NCBI GenBank assembly: GCA_002778455.1
Contig: PFCD01000012.1
Span: forward strand, 1,444-65,443
Origin: Candidatus Micrarchaeota archaeon CG10_big_fil_rev_8_21_14_0_10_45_29
Lineage (GTDB): Archaea > Micrarchaeota > Micrarchaeia > Anstonellales > Anstonellaceae
Length of the DNA: 64,000 nucleotides
Reading direction: 5' to 3'
The position numbers and the translations under genes were made by a program. Below are positions 2,794 to 50,546 of the stretch, one piece after another. The notes under the pieces are model-generated. The model was not told where the DNA came from. It saw only the letters and a program-made list of their open reading frames with translations, and made no database searches. Every line of letters starts with the position of its first letter. The stretch's first letter is position 1.

Positions 2794-3283
2794 CATTTTT
2801 ATACTCTATTTACCATATATTCTCATGGTAAGGAAAGTTGAGGCAATCTCCTCATACATGGAGGGGCATTCAAGCAATTTTCACTATCCCTTTCCCCTTA
2901 ATATGAAAAATGCGCCCTCGAAGTTTGATGATTTGCTGCAAAAGCAAATGCAAAATTTCAAAAAAAGAAATAAGGAAAAAAAGGATTCCCTTGATTTGAG
3001 CCATAACTGCAAAAAAATGCAAAAATTAGAAAAATTAGTTTGCGAATTCTGCGAAGGAGAAAGCTCTTTTTCACTAAAGGAGAAGAAGGAAATTTTGCAG
3101 AAAATAAAAGATTTGATTTCGCAGCTTCCCTCCTCAGGCAGCGAGGCAATAAAAGAGATGCTAAACTCACACAGCAATTTGGAGCTTTATTCAATATTTC
3201 TAAATTCCGCGCCGCCTGAAGCCAAGCCCCTCACTTATCCGCAGGAGATAGCAAAATTCGCATCAAGCTTTAGGCGCAACTGA
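2786..3283 (+). CDS. Hypothetical Lys-rich protein (start uncertain; alternative ATG at 2825)
   Basis: ORF 2702..3283. The ATG at 2786 overlaps the upstream stop (ATGAGTAA). Lys/Glu-rich, coiled-coil-like sequence with no recognisable motifs. Confidence 0.35.
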   Translation: MSNIFILYLPYILMVRKVEAISSYMEGHSSNFHYPFPLNMKNAPSKFDDLLQKQMQNFKKRNKEKKDSLDLSHNCKKMQKLEKLVCEFCEGESSFSLKEKKEILQKIKDLISQLPSSGSEAIKEMLNSHSNLELYSIFLNSAPPEAKPLTYPQEIAKFASSFRRN

Positions 3284-3330
3284 ACATCTTTTTCTCCCCT
3301 CCGCCACTTTACGGGGCAAATAGCAAGATA

Positions 3331-3343
3331 GGGTTATAAACCC
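3331..3343 (+). promoter_or_regulatory. Candidate TATA box (GGGTTATAAACCC) for the rpl3 operon
   Basis: An A/T-rich TTATAAA core flanked by GGG/CCC in the 328-bp non-coding gap upstream of rpl3. Position relative to the real transcription start is unknown. Confidence 0.3.
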
Positions 3344-3398
3344 TTGTATACATATTCTTCTTCACGTCTACTTTACAAATTCTTGTGAGGTTTGACAC

Positions 3399-3416
3399 TC
3401 CTAACAATTGTTAGGA
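3399..3416. promoter_or_regulatory. Perfect 18-bp palindrome TCCTAACAATTGTTAGGA
   Basis: Read directly from the sequence. It is self-complementary over all 18 nt and lies in the rpl3 upstream region. It could be a dimeric regulator site or an RNA hairpin. Confidence 0.6.
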
Positions 3417-3432
3417 ATCATCCCGGCAGATT

Positions 3433-3460
3433 GGCTAACATGCTAAATGAGCATGTTGCC
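3433..3460 (+). promoter_or_regulatory. Leader stem-loop (AACATGCT-AAATG-AGCATGTT, extended by GGC/GCC)
   Basis: An 8-bp perfect stem plus 3 further pairs across a 1-nt bulge, with a 5-nt loop. Followed by an A-rich tract. Confidence 0.5.
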
Positions 3461-3554
3461 AAATAAAAAGGGAAAATTTTTCCGCCCTGAAAAAGGGGTG
3501 CGCCAATGCCAAGGCAAGCGCATTCGGAAAAAAAGTTTCAAAAGTGATAAGAAT

Positions 3555-3580
3555 GGCAAAAAAGAAAATTGCTTTTTGCC
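3555..3580 (+). promoter_or_regulatory. Leader stem-loop GGCAAAAA(AG)...GCTTTTTGCC about 20 nt upstream of the rpl3 Shine-Dalgarno
   Basis: 8-9 bp of complementary arms. The SD AGGAGG at 3598-3603 and the ATG at 3612 follow. Confidence 0.5.
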
Positions 3581-4560: not shown

Positions 4561-5352
4561 ATGGCAAAAGCAACATTATATTCAACAAGCGGAAAAGCAA
4601 GCGGCGAGGTAGAGCTTCCGGCAGCATTTGATGAGCCGATACGCCCCGGCCTTATAGCAAGGGCGGCAATAGCAGACCAGACTCAATTTTACCAGCCAAA
4701 GGGAAGCGACGTATGGGCAGGAATGAAAACCTCTGCAAGATATCAGGGAAGAAAAGACACTTACGGCGCATCAAAAAACCACGGAATGTCGATGCTTCCG
4801 AGGGAAATTCTTCCGGGCGGAAAATTCGGGCGAGCAAGGCGAATTCCCTCATCCGTGAAAGGAAGGCGCGCGCACCCTCCGAAAGTGGAAGAGAAATTAA
4901 TCGAGAAAATAAACAAAAAAGAATATGAAAAGGCGCTTCACTCCGCATTGGCGGCATCCGCCTCAATAAAATACGTGCTCTCACGCGGGCACAAAATAAG
5001 CGAAAAATTCTCACTCCCTATTATAATAGACGGCTCAGCCGCGCTTGCCAAAACAAAGGACGCGCAAAAAATGCTTGAGGCAATAGGGATAGGGGACGAC
5101 CTTGCAAGAGGCAAAAATTCAAAAAAGCGCTCGGGTGTCGGCTCAAGAAAGGGCGGCTTAAGGCGCCCAAAAACCATACTTATAGTGGTATCACAAAAAG
5201 AGGGCGCAATTAAGCGCGCGGCAAAAAACATCGCAGGAGTAGACGTTGTAAGCGCGGATAAATTAAGGGTGCTTGACCTTGCGCCCGGAGCAAAAGCCGG
5301 CAGGCTCGCGGCATATACAAAAGCCGCGCTTGAGGAAATCGCGAAAAGATGA
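4561..5352 (+). CDS. rpl4: 50S ribosomal protein uL4
   Basis: L4-like sequence (YQPKGSD..GRKDTYGASKNHGMSM..RRAHPPK) in the position after rpl3. Confidence 0.92.
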   Translation: MAKATLYSTSGKASGEVELPAAFDEPIRPGLIARAAIADQTQFYQPKGSDVWAGMKTSARYQGRKDTYGASKNHGMSMLPREILPGGKFGRARRIPSSVKGRRAHPPKVEEKLIEKINKKEYEKALHSALAASASIKYVLSRGHKISEKFSLPIIIDGSAALAKTKDAQKMLEAIGIGDDLARGKNSKKRSGVGSRKGGLRRPKTILIVVSQKEGAIKRAAKNIAGVDVVSADKLRVLDLAPGAKAGRLAAYTKAALEEIAKR

Positions 5353-5357
5353 TATTT

Positions 5358-5789
5358 ATGGCAAAAAAAACCAAAAGCCAAGAAGCATTCCAAGCAGGGC
5401 AGCAGGCAGAGGCAAAGATAGCAAAAGCAAATGCAAAACTCTCTGGCAAAGGGGCAAAAAAATATTTGCCAAAGGCAAAAGTTTATTCGGGAAAATACGG
5501 GGCGCAGGAAGATGGCAAGGAGGGCGCATACACCGCCAAAGGCACAATCCTTCTTTACCCAATAACAACAGAGAAGGCAATTGCCATGATTGAATTTTCA
5601 AACCAGCTCACATTTGTTGTAAGCGCAAATTCCACAAAGCCGCAGATAAAAAGGGAAGTTGAAGCCCTCTTCAAAGTAAAGGTGGGGAGAATCAACACAA
5701 AAATAACTCCCAAGGGAAAAAAGCACGCTTACATAAAGCTAAAGGAAGGAAAGGCGGATGACATCGCATCACAGCTAAAGATTGTATAA
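5358..5789 (+). CDS. rpl23: 50S ribosomal protein uL23 with ~60-aa Lys/Ala-rich N-terminal extension
   Basis: C-terminal core ILLYPITTEKAIAMIEFSNQLTFVVSANSTKPQIKREVEALFKVKV. An alternative start at 5349 overlaps the rpl4 stop. Confidence 0.88.
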   Translation: MAKKTKSQEAFQAGQQAEAKIAKANAKLSGKGAKKYLPKAKVYSGKYGAQEDGKEGAYTAKGTILLYPITTEKAIAMIEFSNQLTFVVSANSTKPQIKREVEALFKVKVGRINTKITPKGKKHAYIKLKEGKADDIASQLKIV

Positions 5790-10743: not shown

Positions 10744-11442
10744 ATGAGCAAAAAAGGAAACTCACCGCACACAAAAAGGATTTCGCTTCCAAAAACCCTG
10801 CCTGTGGCAGGAAGAAAGGAGCATGTGTGGATAGCCTCGGTAAGCCCCGGAACTCATGCAAGAAGCGGGGGCATAAACCTTCTGATGCTGCTTCGAGACG
10901 AGCTTTCAGTATGCGCGAACCTCTCTGAAACAAAGCGCCTCCTAAATTCCGGAGGGGTGCTTGTGGACGGGCAGGCGCGAAAAGACGCGCGCTTCCCCGT
11001 GGGGATAATGGATATTATTTCCATATTGCCTGCAAAAAAGGCATATCGGATGCAAATCACGGGGGGGAAGCTAAAGCCCGCGGAAGTGGATGCGAAAAAA
11101 GCGTCCATAAAATACTGCAAGGTGGTCGGAAAGCGCACCCTCAAAAAGAAAAAAATCGCAATCACACTGCACGATGGCAGAAGCCTTTTGGCGGACGACA
11201 ACGTGAAAGTCGGCTCAACCCTGAAAATGGAACTGCCGAAATTCAAGATGCACGGGAGCATATCAATGGCTCCGGGCGCAAAATGCGTTGTGATAAAAGG
11301 AAAGCACGCGGGAAAGATTGCAAAACTTGAAAACATCTCAAAGCGAACCGGATCCATCCCGGCGCGCGCACAGCTCAAGGCAAGTGAGGGGGACTTTAGC
11401 ACCCTGGCAAACTACCTTGTGGCAGTTGACGAGGATTTCTAA
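10744..11442 (+). CDS. rps4e: 30S ribosomal protein eS4
   Basis: KKGNSPHTKRISLPK N-terminus and GGVLVDGQARKDARFPVGIMDIISI. Confidence 0.93.
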   Translation: MSKKGNSPHTKRISLPKTLPVAGRKEHVWIASVSPGTHARSGGINLLMLLRDELSVCANLSETKRLLNSGGVLVDGQARKDARFPVGIMDIISILPAKKAYRMQITGGKLKPAEVDAKKASIKYCKVVGKRTLKKKKIAITLHDGRSLLADDNVKVGSTLKMELPKFKMHGSISMAPGAKCVVIKGKHAGKIAKLENISKRTGSIPARAQLKASEGDFSTLANYLVAVDEDF

Positions 11443-23075: not shown

Positions 23076-23215
23076 GCCGGGATCGCATAACCTGGTAGTG
23101 CGCACGCCTGGAAGAGCTTTTCTTTTCTTTAGAAGAAAAGAAAACCTCGGAAAAGAAAAGAATCCTGGGAGCGTGTTCCCGCAAGGGTTTGTGGGTTCAA
23201 ATCCCACTTCCGGCG
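23076..23215 (+). tRNA. tRNA-Ser (anticodon GGA) with a 56-nt intron at the canonical 37/38 position
   Basis: Hand-folded. Acceptor GCCGGGA/TTCCGGC (one G-U pair). D arm GCAT..GTGC. Anticodon stem CACGC/GCGTG. Loop CTGGAA then intron then A. Long variable arm CCC-GCAA-GGG. T arm GTGGG-TTCAAAT-CCCAC. Discriminator G. No encoded CCA. Confidence 0.8.
23114..23169 (+). other. tRNA-Ser intron
   Basis: Needed to join the anticodon-stem halves. Contains a perfect 12-bp A/T/C hairpin TTTTCTTTTCTT-TAG-AAGAAAAGAAAA. The bulge-helix-bulge geometry was not verified, so boundaries are good to within a few nt. Confidence 0.6.
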
Positions 23216-23369
23216 TACAAACGCCTTCAGTGGTTTTGCGCTTTGCGCAAAATCTCTCCAGCCCTTCGGGCTGAAGATCCCACTTCCGGCGTACAAACGC
23301 CTTCAGTGGTTTTTTGCCGATGCAAAAAATCGCCCCAAACCTAGCGGTTTGAGGCTCCCACTTCCGGCG
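23201..23369 (+). repeat. Tandem re-occurrence of the tRNA-Ser 3' end plus trailer
   Basis: The 37-mer ATCCCACTTCCGGCGTACAAACGCCTTCAGTGGTTTT occurs at 23201-23237 (overlapping the tRNA 3' end) and at 23277-23313. The 14-nt core TCCCACTTCCGGCG occurs again at 23356-23369. Confidence 0.85.
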
Positions 23370-27367: not shown

Positions 27368-27565
27368 ATGTATTTTCCAATAAGATGTTTTACATGCGGC
27401 GCGCCGATTGCGCAGCATTGGGAGGAATACAACTCCCGCACAAAATCCGGAGACGAGCCTGCCAAGGTGCTCGATGACCTTGGCGTAAAGCGGGTTTGCT
27501 GCAGGCGCATGTTCATTTCGCATGTAGAAGTGATGGACAAGGTGGCGAAATACGACCGCCTATGA
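27368..27565 (+). CDS. rpoN: DNA-directed RNA polymerase subunit N (Rpo10)
   Basis: PIRCFTCGAPIA...KRVCCRRM zinc-bundle motif, 65 aa. Confidence 0.92.
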   Translation: MYFPIRCFTCGAPIAQHWEEYNSRTKSGDEPAKVLDDLGVKRVCCRRMFISHVEVMDKVAKYDRL

Positions 27566-27638
27566 GTTGATAAAAAAATTAATTTGGGGCCCGCTTGCCC
27601 TTTTTGGGCAAGGATCCCACAAAATACATTTGCATTTT

Positions 27639-27711
27639 GGGGCTGTGAGGTAATCTGGTATCCTGCCGGCATGGGGTGCCGGCTATCCGAGTTCAAATCT
27701 TGGCGGCCCCA
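27639..27711 (+). tRNA. tRNA-Pro (anticodon GGG)
   Basis: Hand-folded. Acceptor GGGGCTG/CGGCCCC (one G-U pair). Anticodon arm CCGGC-ATGGGGT-GCCGG. T arm CCGAG-TTCAAAT-CTTGG. Discriminator A. No encoded CCA. Confidence 0.82.
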
Positions 27712-27818
27712 AGTTGTTATAAGAAAATATGCGGGACCGCCATTTCGCTTTCGGCGAAATCCGCCCAACGCTTGCGCGTTGAGCGTCTTGGCGGCCCCAA
27801 GTTATTATAAGAAAATAT
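27698..27818 (+). repeat. Duplication of the tRNA-Pro 3' end plus trailer
   Basis: The 33-mer TCTTGGCGGCCCCAAGTTGTTATAAGAAAATAT at 27698-27730 (overlapping the tRNA 3' end) recurs at 27786-27818 with one G-to-A change. The 55-nt spacer is built of two hairpins. Confidence 0.85.
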
Positions 27819-27920
27819 TCGCAAGTGTTTTTCCGAGAGTAGCCCCGAACCGCTAAGGAGGGCACATCCCCCCGAAACAGTTTGAGAGTGTTTGCGGAAC
27901 TCTTGCAAAGGTGATTTAAA

Positions 27921-44124: not shown

Positions 44125-46146
44125 TTATTTTATCATCTTCTTTATTTTGCTTATTATTTTCTTTTTTTGCGTGCAATCCTTTAGCGCTATTTGCATAACA
44201 TCCACAAGGTTATCCACAGGCAGTATTTTTATTTTTCCTCTCATTTTAGGCGCCAAATAAATGTCTTGCGCGTTTTTGCGCGGCACTATTATCTCTTTCA
44301 TTCCCGCCTCAATAGCCGCCTCTGTTTTTGCCGTCGCACCGCCAATAGGCAAAACATCCCCTCTTACTGAGAGCGAGCCTGTCATTGCCACATCCTGGCG
44401 TATGGGAATTTCCTCCATTGCAGAGAGCATTGCAAGCGCAATGGAAACCGATGCAGAATCCCCCTCAACTCCCTCGTAAGTTTGCAAAAATTGCACATGC
44501 ACATCATATGAGGAAACGTTTTTTCCAAGATGCTTTTTTATTATGGCGGAGACATTTTCCACCGCCTCGCGCGCAATAGAGCCTAATTTTCCTGTCGCGA
44601 TTAATTTCCCCTCATTCTTGCTTCCTGCAGGGGTAACTTCGGCAACAATAGGCATCACAAGCCCGGAAGTTCCGTCTCCCATTACCGCAAGCCCGTTTAC
44701 TTTGCCAACATTATACCCTTTGGTGGAAAATACCTCATACTCTTTTTTTACCTCAATATATTTGCTGCTCATCTGCTGCTCCATTGTAAGCGCAATAGAG
44801 CGCGCCCTCTCAATATACCCAACTTCCACGAGGGAGGCATTCTCATCAACAGCAACATCCCCGGCAGCCCTTACAAGCCCGCCAAGCTCGCGCAAATTCA
44901 ATGTAAACCTTTTTTTTCTCCCCGCCTTTCTTCTTGCCTCTGAAATTATTTCCCCCACAGCATCGCGCGAGAAATGCGGTATTTTGCCGTCTTTGTCTAT
45001 TTCCTGAGCAACAAACTGCACAATCAAATTCTCATTCTCCTCAGTATCTTCCATTGTGTCTTCCATATATACTTCATACCCTGAGCCGCGAATCCTGCTT
45101 CTCATCGCAGGATGCATATGCTTCATGTCAATCAAGTTTCCTGCAGCAACAAGCACAAAGTCGCACGGCACCGCCTCAGTTTTCACAATGGCGCCCGAGC
45201 TCATTTCCGACTGCCCTGTAATTGAATATTTTTTCTCCTGCATCGCGGTGAGAATTTCCTGCTGCCATCTCATTTTTAATGAGGAAATTTCGTCAATAAA
45301 AAGCACTCCCTTGTTTGCCTTGTGAATTGCGCCGGATTCCACGCGCAAATGCGCCGGGGTGCCAAGCCCGCCTGACTGCAGCGGGTCATGCTTCACATCT
45401 CCCAAAAGCGCGCCCGCCTTGTTTCCGGTTCCGTCCATAAAAGGCGCGGTGTGCAATCCAGTATTATCCACAATTAACTTTGGCTCGTTGTGGTCGCCTC
45501 CCATGGCGCCCATTTTCTTTCCCAAAGTGTTTGTAAACCTCCACAAAAGAAACAAAAGCCCGAAAGCGCCCAGCGCCGCCAAAATAAACCATTTATTCTC
45601 ATCATTTAGCGTGCCTGTCGCATACAAAATAATAAGCACAAACATAAAGCCTAGCAAAAACAATATTCCTGCAGATGGCCCCTGCCCGCCTGTGGGGAGC
45701 ATATTTTTGCTTCTTGCCCCCTGTATAATCATTCTCCCTGCCCCGACATTTTGCTTTGGGACGCTTATTTGCATTTTTTTGCCCATATGCTCAAATTGCA
45801 TGCGAGCCGCATTTGCCTGCATATATAGCTTTGCAAGCTGCGCGTCCTGGCGCAAAAGCTCGGGCGAGGGATAAGTAGGAATAACTCTTACAAGCGGCTT
45901 ATTCTCATCATTGGGGTTTTGGTATACAAGCACATCCTGCAACGCCGTAACAGGCATCAATTCAGCCATCGCCTGCGCAAGCATGGATTTTCCTGTGCCC
46001 GGAGAGCCAATCATCAGCACATGCCTTCTCTGCTTTGCCGCCTTTTTCACAATTTTTACTGCCCTATCCTGCCCTATCACCTGGTCAACAAGTTTTTTTG
46101 GGATTTTAATTTCAGCAGTTGTTTTAAACTCAAGCATATATAGCAC
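44125..46146 (-). CDS. lon: Archaeal membrane-bound Lon protease (LonB)
   Basis: Walker [14 protein letters not shown], a TM insertion within the AAA+ domain ([16 protein letters not shown]..), and a C-terminal protease domain [15 protein letters not shown]. Confidence 0.93.
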
Positions 46147-46214
46147 CGTTTTGCAAGGAATGTATTATGTTGCTTAGGATATAAAAAGACAAACCTCTGC
46201 CCAAACAATTAATT

Positions 46215-46225
46215 GGGGGGGGGGG
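46215..46225. repeat. Homopolymeric G11 tract (C11 on the lon strand)
   Basis: Counted directly. Lies ~70 nt upstream of the lon start and ~55 nt upstream of the candidate ncRNA. Confidence 0.9.
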
Positions 46226-46279
46226 CTTAAGAAAATTTTTTGCGTGTAAAAATAAGAATCAAATTAAAATGTGGGAAGC

Positions 46280-46447
46280 GCGGCAAAATAAGAATTTCCT
46301 GGGAGGAAGTAGTTATCCTATTCTAAGGGGTGAATGGACAAATGGGGTGGTTCTCAACATAAGAGTTGAGGGGTTTGTTTGGCTTGAAGCAAATGTTTGG
46401 GGGTTTGCCTCAAACCTCTACTATCCCAGGAAGAACCATTTTGCCGC
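46280..46447 (+). ncRNA. Candidate structured non-coding RNA, class unassigned
   Basis: The 5' GCGGCAAAAT and 3' ATTTTGCCGC ends form a perfect 10-bp closing helix. A second helix pairs TTTCCTGGGA with TCCCAGGAAG. Internal hairpins include CTCAAC-ATAAGA-GTTGAG. G-U pairs favour the + strand. An A/T box lies ~30 nt upstream and a T-run downstream. The overlapping 90-aa ORF is not protein-like. Confidence 0.4.
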
Positions 46448-46478
46448 TAAAAACATAAAAACCCATCTATTTTTGTTG

Positions 46479-46667
46479 TTAAATTTCTGCCAATATGGGT
46501 TCTGCCACCTCCGAATACCTCTCTTTATCCACAGTGTATAAGTATGCGCCCTCACCCATTTTTGTAAGGTATGCATCCACTCTCGCCGAGCTTAGCGCCC
46601 TCGTTATTTTGCTCACTTCTTCCAGCGTCATATTCGCGATATCAATATACATATTTCTCACCAGCAA
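46479..46667 (-). CDS. Hypothetical small protein (62 aa)
   Basis: ORF only. Balanced composition, no recognised motif. Convergent with the candidate ncRNA. Confidence 0.3.
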   Translation of the reverse strand: MLVRNMYIDIANMTLEEVSKITRALSSARVDAYLTKMGEGAYLYTVDKERYSEVAEPILAEI

Positions 46668-46764
46668 TTCTTTGCGCGTTTTGCTTATATATAAATAAGG
46701 AAAGGGTGATTTTCCGCGTTTTTTGTTGCATTAAATATATTTTCAGGCGTTTTACGAGAATATG

Positions 46765-46774
46765 TTTATAAATA
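46765..46774 (+). promoter_or_regulatory. Candidate TATA box (TTTATAAATA) for the rpoH operon
   Basis: A/T box ~60 nt upstream of the rpoH TTG start. Inferred from sequence only. Confidence 0.35.
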
Positions 46775-46832
46775 TTTGTATTCCTAATAATCTGCACGCA
46801 CGAACCCCCACACTAGGTACTATGGTGTTATA

Positions 46833-47087
46833 TTGGCCAAAAAATCTTCTAAAAAACAAAAAGAAAAACTAGAGCATAATTTGGTTCCTCAGCACATTCT
46901 TCTAACAGAGGAGGAAAAACAAAAAGTATTTGCAAAGTTTAGTGCAACTGCTCTCAATTTTCCAAAAATTAACGCCGCAGATCCTGCGCTTATCGGCATG
47001 GATGCAAAGCAGGGGGACCTCGTACTTATAAAAAGAAAAGATTCGACAAGCACCCACGACTATTACCGTCTGGTTGCAAAGGGATAG
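46833..47087 (+). CDS. rpoH: DNA-directed RNA polymerase subunit H (Rpo5), TTG start
   Basis: HILLTEEEKQKVFAKF..PKINAADPAL..GDLVLIKRKDSTS motif, first gene of the RNAP operon. Confidence 0.9.
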   Translation: MAKKSSKKQKEKLEHNLVPQHILLTEEEKQKVFAKFSATALNFPKINAADPALIGMDAKQGDLVLIKRKDSTSTHDYYRLVAKG

Positions 47088-48667: not shown

Positions 48668-48686
48668 TTTTTACAAGGTGCAACTC

Positions 48687-50546
48687 ATGGCAAAAAAAAT
48701 AAGAAAAAGAAAAAAACTGGCGCATTTGCAGGGAAGAAAAACCGCCGTGCTTCTTAACGGAAGGCTTATCGGCGAGGTTGAGAATCCAAACGACCTTCTC
48801 TCAAAGCTCTCAGAGTCAAGGCGCTCAGGCTCTATGGCAGCAGGCGTTAATTTTTACTACAATTCTCGCACCGACGAATTTATGGTAAATTCCGACTCAG
48901 GGCGCGCAAGGCGCCCCTACATAATAGTTGAGGGCGGCAAAAGCAAATTAACCTCAGAGCTTGACTCACAGCTAAAGGCCGGGCAAATGAGCTGGGGAAA
49001 GCTTGTTTCCATGGGCGTAATCGAATACCTTGATGCAGAAGAGGAGGAAGGCGCAAGAATCGCACTTCACGAGGCAGACATAACAGATGAGCACACCCAC
49101 CTTGAAATCGACCCTGTCACAATTACAGGAGTAACAGTATCAACCCTTCCATACCCAGAATACAATTCCTCCCCGCGTGTCACAATGGCATGCTCTATGT
49201 CTAAGCAGTCGCTCGGCACTTACTTGCTTAATTTTAACCAAAGAAACGATTCGCGCGGGCATATCTTATATTATCCGCAGCAGCCTCTTGTGCAAAGCCG
49301 CCCCTATAAAATATTGGGCTTTGGAGAGCATGCCGCAGGGCAGAATTTTGTAGTGGCAGTAGTTTGCCACGAGGGATACAACACAAGCGACGCATTGGTT
49401 GTAAACCGCTCCGCAATTGACCGCGGTTTGGGCCGCTCGGTATTTTTCAAGACGCATGAAACAGAGGAGAGGCGCTACCCCGGCGGGCAAAAAGACAAAT
49501 TTGAATTGCCTCCGGTAACCGCGCAAGGATACCGCGATGAGCGCGCATACCGCCACCTCTCCGACGACGGGATAATTTTGCCAGAATCCAAGCTTGAGCC
49601 AAAAGACGTGCTTGTGGGAAAAACCTCCCCTCCCCGCTTTTTGGAAGAAGTATCGGTATTTGGCATGGTAGAGGAGAAGAAAAGAGACAATTCCCTCTCT
49701 GTAAAAGCCGGAGACCACGGCGCAGTGGATTCTGTCCTTATAACCGATTCATTGGCAGGCAACAGGCTTGTAAAAGTAAGGGTCCGCTCAATAAAAGTTC
49801 CTGAGCAGGGAGACAAATTCGCCTCCCGCCACGGGCAGAAAGGAGTTATCGGCATGAAGCTCTCGCAGGAGGATATGCCGTTTACCTCGGAAGGAATAGT
49901 CCCTGATTTGATGATTAACCCGCACGCAATTCCCTCGCGAATGACTGCAGGGCATTTGCTTGAAATGCTTGGAGGAAAAGCGGTTTGCCACAGCGGCAAA
50001 TTCGGAGACGCGACGGCATTTGCCGGGGACGGTGAGGAGAAATTCCGCAACGAGCTAAAAACACTGGGCTTTGACGAGTATGGCGTGGAAACTCTCTATG
50101 ACGGCTACACAGGCAAGCCGATAAAAGCAAAAATTTACATCGGAGTAATATATTACCAAAAATTGCATCACTTAGTATCCAACAAAATGCATGTTCGCGC
50201 GCGCGGGCCCGTGCAGCTGCTCACCCGCCAGCCGACAGAGGGAAGGGCACGCGAAGGTGGCTTGCGTTTCGGGGAAATGGAGCGCGACTGCCTTATCGGC
50301 TACGGCGCATCCATGCTTATTCGCGAGAGGCTTTTGGAGGAATCAGACCGCTCATACCAGCTTGTATGCGCAAAAACCGGTTCCATCGGCTACAAGGATT
50401 ACATACGCAACAGGCTTGTCTCTCCATTGGATGAGAACAGCAGCGAGCTTTATTATGTTGAAATGTCGCATGCGTTCAAGCTTTTGCTTGATGAGATAAA
50501 GTCTATGGGAATATTCCCAAGGCTTTTGATGAGGGACAAGGCATAG
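48687..50546 (+). CDS. rpoB1: DNA-directed RNA polymerase subunit B' (C-terminal part of split Rpo2)
   Basis: GDKFASRHGQKGV and EGGLRFGEMERD motifs. The ATG at 48687 follows the rpoB2 stop at 48667. Confidence 0.95.
   Translation: MAKKIRKRKKLAHLQGRKTAVLLNGRLIGEVENPNDLLSKLSESRRSGSMAAGVNFYYNSRTDEFMVNSDSGRARRPYIIVEGGKSKLTSELDSQLKAGQMSWGKLVSMGVIEYLDAEEEEGARIALHEADITDEHTHLEIDPVTITGVTVSTLPYPEYNSSPRVTMACSMSKQSLGTYLLNFNQRNDSRGHILYYPQQPLVQSRPYKILGFGEHAAGQNFVVAVVCHEGYNTSDALVVNRSAIDRGLGRSVFFKTHETEERRYPGGQKDKFELPPVTAQGYRDERAYRHLSDDGIILPESKLEPKDVLVGKTSPPRFLEEVSVFGMVEEKKRDNSLSVKAGDHGAVDSVLITDSLAGNRLVKVRVRSIKVPEQGDKFASRHGQKGVIGMKLSQEDMPFTSEGIVPDLMINPHAIPSRMTAGHLLEMLGGKAVCHSGKFGDATAFAGDGEEKFRNELKTLGFDEYGVETLYDGYTGKPIKAKIYIGVIYYQKLHHLVSNKMHVRARGPVQLLTRQPTEGRAREGGLRFGEMERDCLIGYGASMLIRERLLEESDRSYQLVCAKTGSIGYKDYIRNRLVSPLDENSSELYYVEMSHAFKLLLDEIKSMGIFPRLLMRDKA

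Follow-up and report, generated by a model that had tools for sequence, protein, structure and literature searches.

A structured element between lonB and a conserved small orphan gene in a Micrarchaeota archaeon: a probable RNA of a new and very narrow family

We analysed a stretch of 64,000 nucleotides (nt; hereafter the window) of contig PFCD01000012.1 from Candidatus Micrarchaeota archaeon CG10_big_fil_rev_8_21_14_0_10_45_29. Between the genes for archaeal LonB and RpoH, this stretch carries a 168-nt element that we regard as a genuine structured RNA, probably functional, belonging to a new and very narrow family and linked to a conserved small open reading frame (ORF) of 57 amino acids (aa). 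The original prediction had placed a structured RNA here in an interval thought to hold no protein gene; the small ORF, on the minus strand at 46479-46652, lies in that very interval. The archaeon is uncultivated and comes from groundwater; the exact LonB protein is found on groundwater contigs of the Joint Genome Institute (JGI) and the European Nucleotide Archive (ENA), and DNA of the window occurs in groundwater metagenome runs. The features of the locus are listed below; the hairpins, the unpaired segments and the 3' arm of P0 are taken from our helix table, and the lonB signals are given by motif position.

46280..46447, minus (most likely strand): structured RNA element, 168 nt; four-way junction in which P0, P1 and P2 enclose hairpins Ha, Hb and Hc
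46436..46447, minus: 5' arm of P0, GCGGCAAAAUGG, pairing with 46280-46291 (10 perfect plus 2 G-U pairs)
46280..46291, minus: 3' arm of P0, UUAUUUUGCCGC
46424..46432, minus: 5' arm of P1, UUCCUGGGA; counterpart (C/U)UCUUGGGA in relatives
46295..46306, minus: 3' arm of P1 with flank, CCUCCCAGGAAA; 11 of 12 positions identical to CCUCCCAAGAAA of L019 and L023
46381..46416, minus: hairpin Ha, 13 base pairs (bp) with 2 interior G-U pairs, loop CCCCCAAACA
46371..46383, minus: motif GCCAAACAAACC (46372-46383) and a further unpaired C (46371), partly in an unpaired linker
46371-46380, minus: the unpaired linker, AAACAAACCC
46353..46370, minus: hairpin Hb, 6 bp, loop UCUUAU
46342-46352, minus: unpaired segment preceding Hc, AACCACCCCAU
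46313..46341, minus: hairpin Hc, 10 bp with one bulged A, loop ACCCCUUA
46446..46461, minus: T-rich TATA-like boxes TTTTTATG and TTTTTAGC, directly after the small-ORF stop codon; perfectly conserved in L013
46246..46279, minus: 3' flank GCUUCCCAC, then T-runs CAUUUUAAUUUG and UUAUUUUUAC; GCYTCCCRCATTTT kept in L013, followed by T6 and T7 runs
46479..46652, minus: conserved orphan small ORF, 57 aa (MYIDIANMTLEEV...), always immediately upstream of the RNA and 31 nt from the element
46177-46188, minus: TATA-like box of lonB, CTTTTTATATCC
46143-46148, minus: Shine-Dalgarno-like CGGTGC of lonB
44125..46137, minus: archaeal lonB, downstream neighbour of the element (Pfam; exact protein on public contigs)
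46833-47087, plus: rpoH, with split rpoB genes beyond

Folding of the 168-nt element gave a minimum free energy (MFE) of -67.7 kcal/mol for the minus strand (z = -10.2) and of -65.6 kcal/mol for the plus strand (z = -4.72), and 0 of 200 shuffles were as good in either case. When cut exactly at its ends, the element lies about 4.3 standard deviations below the regression of MFE on guanine-plus-cytosine (GC) content over all native 168-nt windows of the 64 kb, and its GC-adjusted rank places it among the two or three most structured stretches of that length, comparable to tRNA regions. The helices originally proposed are present, namely GCGGCAAAAT (46280-46289) with ATTTTGCCGC (46438-46447), TTTCCTGGGA (46295-46304) with TCCCAGGAAG (46424-46433), and the inner hairpin at 46353-46370. 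The perfect 10-bp terminal repeat alone is at chance level, with 31 such inverted repeats spanning 200 nt or less in the window against 23.1±6.4 in Markov simulations; it is the whole nested architecture that exceeds chance. In the minus-strand fold all 28 G are paired and the 58 unpaired bases comprise 25 C, 20 A, 13 U and no G, leaving C/A-rich single-stranded segments (CCCCCAAACA, AAACAAACCC, AACCACCCCAU and ACCCCUUA).

Constraint on this fold can be read from the closest relative, L013, whose contig comes from the same JGI sample and represents another strain or species; its small-ORF protein is 88% identical. Identity to L013 is 96% over the element, compared with 87% for the small ORF, 84% for rpoH and 84% for the spacer that separates rpoH and the small ORF; beginning 14 nt beyond the element it drops to 41%, which is effectively unalignable. 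The five differences within the element (a base change adjacent to an indel being counted together with that indel) all fall at unpaired positions (p ~0.005 for random placement): substitutions of one internal-loop base and of the bulged A of Hc, a 5-nt deletion with an adjacent base change in the loop of Hb, and a 3-nt deletion and a base change in the internal loop between P0 and P1. Hb in L013 retains 5 bp of its stem below a loop 5 nt shorter, and 9 bp of P0 are kept. Conservation within the locus thus peaks in the element, where the changes are compatible with the fold. Contigs from the DNA runs are mostly identical over the element, except for one partial third variant (run X6) with two changes in the Hb loop and, in Hc, one G-U pair converted to A-U and one C-G pair broken. 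A 5-nt deletion in L013 frameshifts the 90-aa plus-strand ORF at 46269-46541 into a stop codon, so that this ORF, which also has no Pfam match, is not coding; it had been dismissed as a protein from the outset, and the accompanying view of a structured element holds as well. The element is conserved in L013, and in more distant relatives RNA at the same position covaries.

The sequences flanking the structure contain candidate transcription signals. The boxes at 46446..46461, whose counterparts in relatives read TTTATAGG, TTTATATGG or TTTTTAGG, are a candidate promoter of the RNA or a candidate terminator of the small ORF, and the T-runs in 46246..46279 are a candidate oligo-T terminator. Between the element and the TATA-like box of lonB lies an uninterrupted run of 11 G at 46215-46225, read as 11 C on the lon strand, which counts 12 in the otherwise identical ENA contig L002, so that its length is either polymorphic or an assembly error.

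To extend the comparison we used the small ORF as an anchor and took the locus from ten further contigs. Homologues of the small ORF form 11 close clusters (39 in all; 51-62 aa), every source-named cluster being of Micrarchaeota, and the ORF is called as a gene on public contigs, almost always just upstream of lonB. The position of the RNA behind it is identical in 10 loci. Five of these (L015, L016, L017, L019 and L023) hold a well-conserved RNA-like element of 100-165 nt in the spacer between small ORF and lon, on the lon strand, with a common order of parts. A TATA-like box (TTTATAGG or TTTATATGG) stands just after the stop codon; some 24 nt on follow GUCCCCC and a hairpin, and then a stem, CUCUUGGGA/UCCCAAGA, which surrounds either one hairpin or three. 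The last enclosed hairpin carries the loop UCUCACCRAACCCACC, invariant in the five, and the RNA displays the conserved loop UCUCACCAAACCCACC; AAACCCC and T-runs lie 3' of the stem arm. The RNAalifold consensus has 36 pairs, of which 8 show compensatory changes. A covariance model built from these five loci (R1) recovers L014 at 27.2 bits (E ~1e-5), and on L004 it gives a sub-threshold 8.4 bits (E 0.23) to a diverged copy with the loop CGCCAAACAAACCAC.

The arrangement in L014 is informative, in that an 870-aa gene on the opposite strand (2.6 kb) parts the RNA from lon and the RNA is still found beside the small ORF; the RNA is thus associated with the small ORF and is more than a mere leader of lon. 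The inserted gene (3349-5961 of L014) carries a Por_Secre_tail domain. In L004 a separate 128-nt block (2715-2842) intervenes between the small ORF and the local copy of the clade RNA, with four CCCAGG/CCTGGG arms that could form mutually exclusive helices, either two local hairpins or one 12-bp long-range helix (GAAACUCCCAGG/CCUGGGAGUUUC). Among more distant Anstonellaceae, L005, L009 and L010 lack a structured element, and their relative of the small ORF is shorter or missing. When the metagenome collection was scanned for the loop motif of the relatives, the result was only one contig already among the loci and five chance matches inside coding genes. The RNA family is small and confined to a narrow clade of Micrarchaeota.

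Whether the element of the window belongs to this clade RNA was assessed from position, stem and motifs. Both have the same position and strand (small ORF, TATA-like box, RNA, T-runs, lon). Their closing stem, YUCYUGGGA/UCCCARGAA, is common to window and relatives: P1 (UUCCUGGGA/UCCCAGGAA) is near-identical to the relatives' CUCUUGGGA/UCCCAAGAA, and the one internal difference is compensated (C-G to U-A); relative to L019 and L023, the single mismatch of the 3' arm is matched by a change in the 5' arm. The pattern CCTCCCARGAAA, drawn from the relatives, has one match in the window against 0.03 expected, at the 3' arm of P1 on the minus strand; it was written after both sequences had been seen, so that the test leans towards a match. 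The 12-mer GCCAAACAAACC in the linker of the window equals the core of the apical loop of L004, a match reached by 1.2% of shuffles, and resembles CACCAAACCCACC of other relatives. An 11-mer of the P0 3' arm, TCTTATTTTGC, is shared with the 3' tail region of L016. In L015-L017 and in the window one stem surrounds three hairpins, and in both RNAs the unpaired segments are G-free, C/A-rich and contain CCAAAC, whereas the conserved loop UCUCACCAAACCCACC is not present as such in the window. From these comparisons we read the window element as a putative remodelled lineage variant of the clade RNA.

The element, very probably a real, conserved and highly folded non-coding RNA, matches no known RNA family. 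Against 4227 Rfam models, the 751-nt region 46100-46850 gave no significant match on either strand even at E <= 10; the whole window gave no RNase P or SRP (signal recognition particle) match at the gathering score, and the 10 related loci gave no family match at E <= 1, RNase P and SRP included. A hit to RAGATH-30 (19.9 bits against a cut-off of 59.5) lies on the plus strand, mostly upstream of the element, and was put down to chance. RNase P RNA, SRP RNA or a new class had all been suggested at first, and of these only the new class survives; RNase P and SRP RNA are excluded to the extent that the models can show it. Archaeal RNase P RNA, including type T, would also be a structured archaeal RNA of roughly 170-200 nt, and the plus-strand word GGGAGGAAGU loosely recalls the region of conserved region I (CR-I) of P4, whose consensus is GGAAAGUCC-like. 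No model of it matched, and reading of the sequence found no AAGUCC core (P4 CR-I/CR-V) on either strand in the window or in the relatives. Size and rapid turnover further exclude this class, since the relatives' version is about 100 nt and its sequence turns over between close genera, unlike an essential ribozyme. SRP RNA, like the element, has its 5' and 3' ends joined in a long terminal helix; here, too, no Rfam model matched, 100-168 nt is about half of 7S RNA, conservation is limited to a narrow clade, and the element is without the helix-8 or GNAR-tetraloop motifs.

Guide RNAs were also rejected, the features of neither the C/D nor the H/ACA type being present. For C/D RNAs only chance-level hits were obtained (SNORD19, E 4.7; sR36, E 1.7), and the UGAUGA in the first hairpin of the relatives covaries as a stem and is absent in L023; for H/ACA RNAs there is no large internal loop and no ACA box after P1. 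There may be a functional resemblance to RsaE/RoxS of Firmicutes, base-pairing small RNAs that display C-rich loops, which could pair with G-rich Shine-Dalgarno sequences. The element likewise combines stable hairpins with unpaired C-rich motifs, UCACC standing in or beside loops; it differs in belonging to another domain of life, in having no sequence or Rfam relation to these RNAs, and in being larger and more branched.

The 57-aa protein itself offers few leads. An AlphaFold model from 11 sequences shows a beta-alpha-beta-beta-alpha domain (predicted local distance difference test, pLDDT, 73). Searches of Pfam and NCBIfam gave nothing significant; repeated sub-threshold matches to LAGLIDADG_2 (13-14 bits against a cut-off of 25), which occur among mutually similar members, were not accepted. 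A profile search of the PDB gave matches only at E >= 0.06, Foldseek against the PDB returned only generic ACT-like alpha/beta folds (E > 0.1), and an exhaustive profile search found only further small orphans and two spurious repeat proteins, with no larger relatives. The order of secondary structures recalls SRP19, a candidate we rejected because Pfam and fold searches gave no match and the protein lacks the basic RNA-binding loop. The one clue to the function of this protein is its constant adjacency to the RNA.

Several other stretches of the window fold strongly. The intergenic region 3330-3560 (plus), after an ORF ending at 3283, contains several perfect hairpins, with z = -7.2 on the plus and -5.0 on the minus strand and no Rfam match at E <= 1; it may be a further unannotated structured RNA, or hairpin clusters may be common in the spacers of this genome. 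At 23076-23215 (plus) Rfam finds a tRNA with a 58-nt insert that ARAGORN missed; downstream of it are two tandem units, some 77 nt long, which both repeat GTACAAACGCCTTCAGTGGTTTT... and end in the tRNA 3'-terminal sequence CCCACTTCCGGCG (23263-23291, 23345-23369); 23076-23369 is the most structured stretch in the window. The stretches 27553-27888, which takes in a tRNA-Pro (27638-27712) and about 170 nt after it, and 10949-11116 also fold much better than their GC content predicts. Eight sites at gene starts have the recurrent form (A/G)GGTGAT-N5-7-ATGGCAAAAAA (family D2; for example 5346-5370 and 48675-48699); GGUGAU is the Shine-Dalgarno sequence in this organism, and MAKK starts many of its proteins.

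Sequence comparison indicates that the element is most likely transcribed from the minus strand, rather than from the plus strand on which it was originally drawn. In each of 12 segments, drawn from 11 loci, folding of the lon strand gives the more negative z-score, and helices with interior G-U pairs exist on that strand only. Read on the opposite strand, these G-U pairs turn into C-A mismatches, be it the two of Ha, those of the hairpin inserted in L015-L017 (8 pairs on the lon strand, 4 on the opposite one) or the 4 in the 19-bp hairpin of L018, which forms on the lon strand alone. The TATA-like box about 24 nt before the RNA 5' end in the five closest relatives, and the T-runs after the structure, have the same orientation. 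An independent RNA on the plus strand, starting at G46280 after the A/T box TAAAAATAAG and ending at CTATTTTTGTTGTT, has in our judgement only a small probability. Its own fold is significant (z = -4.7), the centre of its A/T box precedes 46280 by about 27 nt, which suits an archaeal TATA box and start well, two G-U pairs lengthen Hb there, and the relatives' RNAalifold energy is slightly lower on that strand. Both the A/T box and the downstream T-run exist as predicted, but the sequence of the box is unconserved in L013, the T-run holds two of the three L013 substitutions in the spacer between small ORF and element, and the relatives have no conserved TATA at a fixed distance on that strand. 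In a plus-strand RNA, moreover, the unpaired segments would be rich in G and U (25 G, 0 C), an unusual feature in a stable fold.

Alternatively, the element could belong to a messenger RNA and have no function as a separate RNA. The structure could act in cis as a 5' leader or attenuator of lonB, or as a generic 3'-end stabiliser, terminator or insulator of the small-ORF transcript, which we regard as unlikely, though less so than the other rivals weighed here. It is invariably placed after the small ORF and before lon, in the same orientation as both, T-runs come after it, L018 lacks a TATA-like box between stop codon and hairpin, several lon genes have a Shine-Dalgarno-like GGTG too close to the proximal TATA-like box, hairpins turn over rapidly among the relatives, and the spacer at 3330-3560 is hairpin-rich as well. 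A lon leader is, however, difficult to reconcile with L014, where the RNA is cut off from lon and yet conserved, and with the TATA-like box that lon has of its own in every locus, while a generic stabiliser would not need base-for-base conservation of loops such as those identical between the window and L013 or the loop invariant in the five relatives. Slimmer still are the prospects of a DNA-level element devoid of RNA function, be it a miniature inverted-repeat insertion, a palindromic repeat, or protein-binding or origin-like repeats where lon and rpoH diverge. Like a miniature inverted-repeat transposable element, the 168 bp are non-coding, have perfect 10-bp terminal inverted repeats (46280-46289 and 46438-46447, at chance frequency in the window) and fold strongly on both strands. 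Removal of 46280-46447 leaves TTTTTA followed by GCTTCCCAC, close to the uninterrupted TTTTTTGCCTCCCAC of L004 (a TTTTTT-GCCTCCCAC junction), so that the element looks like a precise insertion; L004 has its different CCCAGG-repeat hairpin block at about the same place, and the cumulative GC skew has its minimum near 46-52 kb. Against this, the element is single-copy (no second copy in the window, and all matching contigs of X1, the deepest run, are collinear with this locus), its flanks TTTTTA and GCTTCC show no target-site duplication, it is conserved above the flanking coding genes with changes confined to unpaired positions, and interior G-U pairs are meaningless in double-stranded DNA. A replication origin was rejected, as the interior is not AT-rich (GC 45%), the genes called immediately next to it on L001 include no orc1/cdc6, and the skew minimum falls where the genes change strand.

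The interpretation we favour, with moderate confidence, is that the element is a functional, highly structured non-coding RNA on the minus strand, like lonB and the 57-aa ORF, and represents this lineage's expanded version of the clade RNA. A TATA-like promoter of its own would drive its transcription from about 18 nt past the small-ORF stop codon, or the RNA could instead be the 3' end of the small-ORF transcript, and in either case may end at the T-runs 10-30 nt beyond the structure. The four-way junction would then serve as a rigid scaffold presenting G-free, C-rich single strands, which might base-pair with G-rich sequences, the GGUGAU Shine-Dalgarno motif for example, or might bind a protein, for which the co-conserved 57-aa product is the obvious candidate. 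That RNA and orphan protein constitute a new archaeal structured-RNA class within a Micrarchaeota-specific small ribonucleoprotein, the G-free C-rich loops binding protein or target, is a more speculative extension that we consider doubtful.

A number of observations weigh against the favoured interpretation. Model R1 does not detect the window element (2.2 bits, E 0.72, filters off), and homology consequently rests on position, one stem and short motifs; the window is without the 5' leader GUCCCCC and first hairpin of the relatives, having the outer helix P0 instead, and its three inner hairpins are unrelated to theirs in sequence. Covariation inside the window-type structure is absent because only L013 and one partial variant exist. 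In L030, where the small ORF is 56% identical, only a C-rich stretch and one hairpin are found (z ~0), so conservation of the RNA does not extend to all members of the small-ORF family. A transcription start some 25 nt beyond the TTTTTATG box would exclude the 5' arm of P0 from the RNA. As to strand, both fold well because most helices are Watson-Crick, part of the asymmetry in z stems from composition, and the near-equal RNAalifold energies of the relatives (-37.1 on the lon strand, -39.1 on the opposite one) do not discriminate; none of the RNA runs searched holds the region, so that the strand is something we infer. Hairpin-rich regions such as 3330-3560 may, finally, be a generic feature of the genome.

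As far as a literature search shows, only the universal non-coding RNAs have been described from Micrarchaeota or DPANN archaea. Given how small the genomes of these organisms are, 168 nt under tighter conservation than the neighbouring gene for an RNA polymerase subunit are likely to do something. The analysis removes a false lead, the element being neither the RNase P RNA nor the SRP RNA still missing from this genome, and the locus offers in its place a concrete, testable RNA together with a partner small protein. Across the related loci, the architecture of this RNA has been remodelled quickly while the closing stem and the display of C-rich segments persist.

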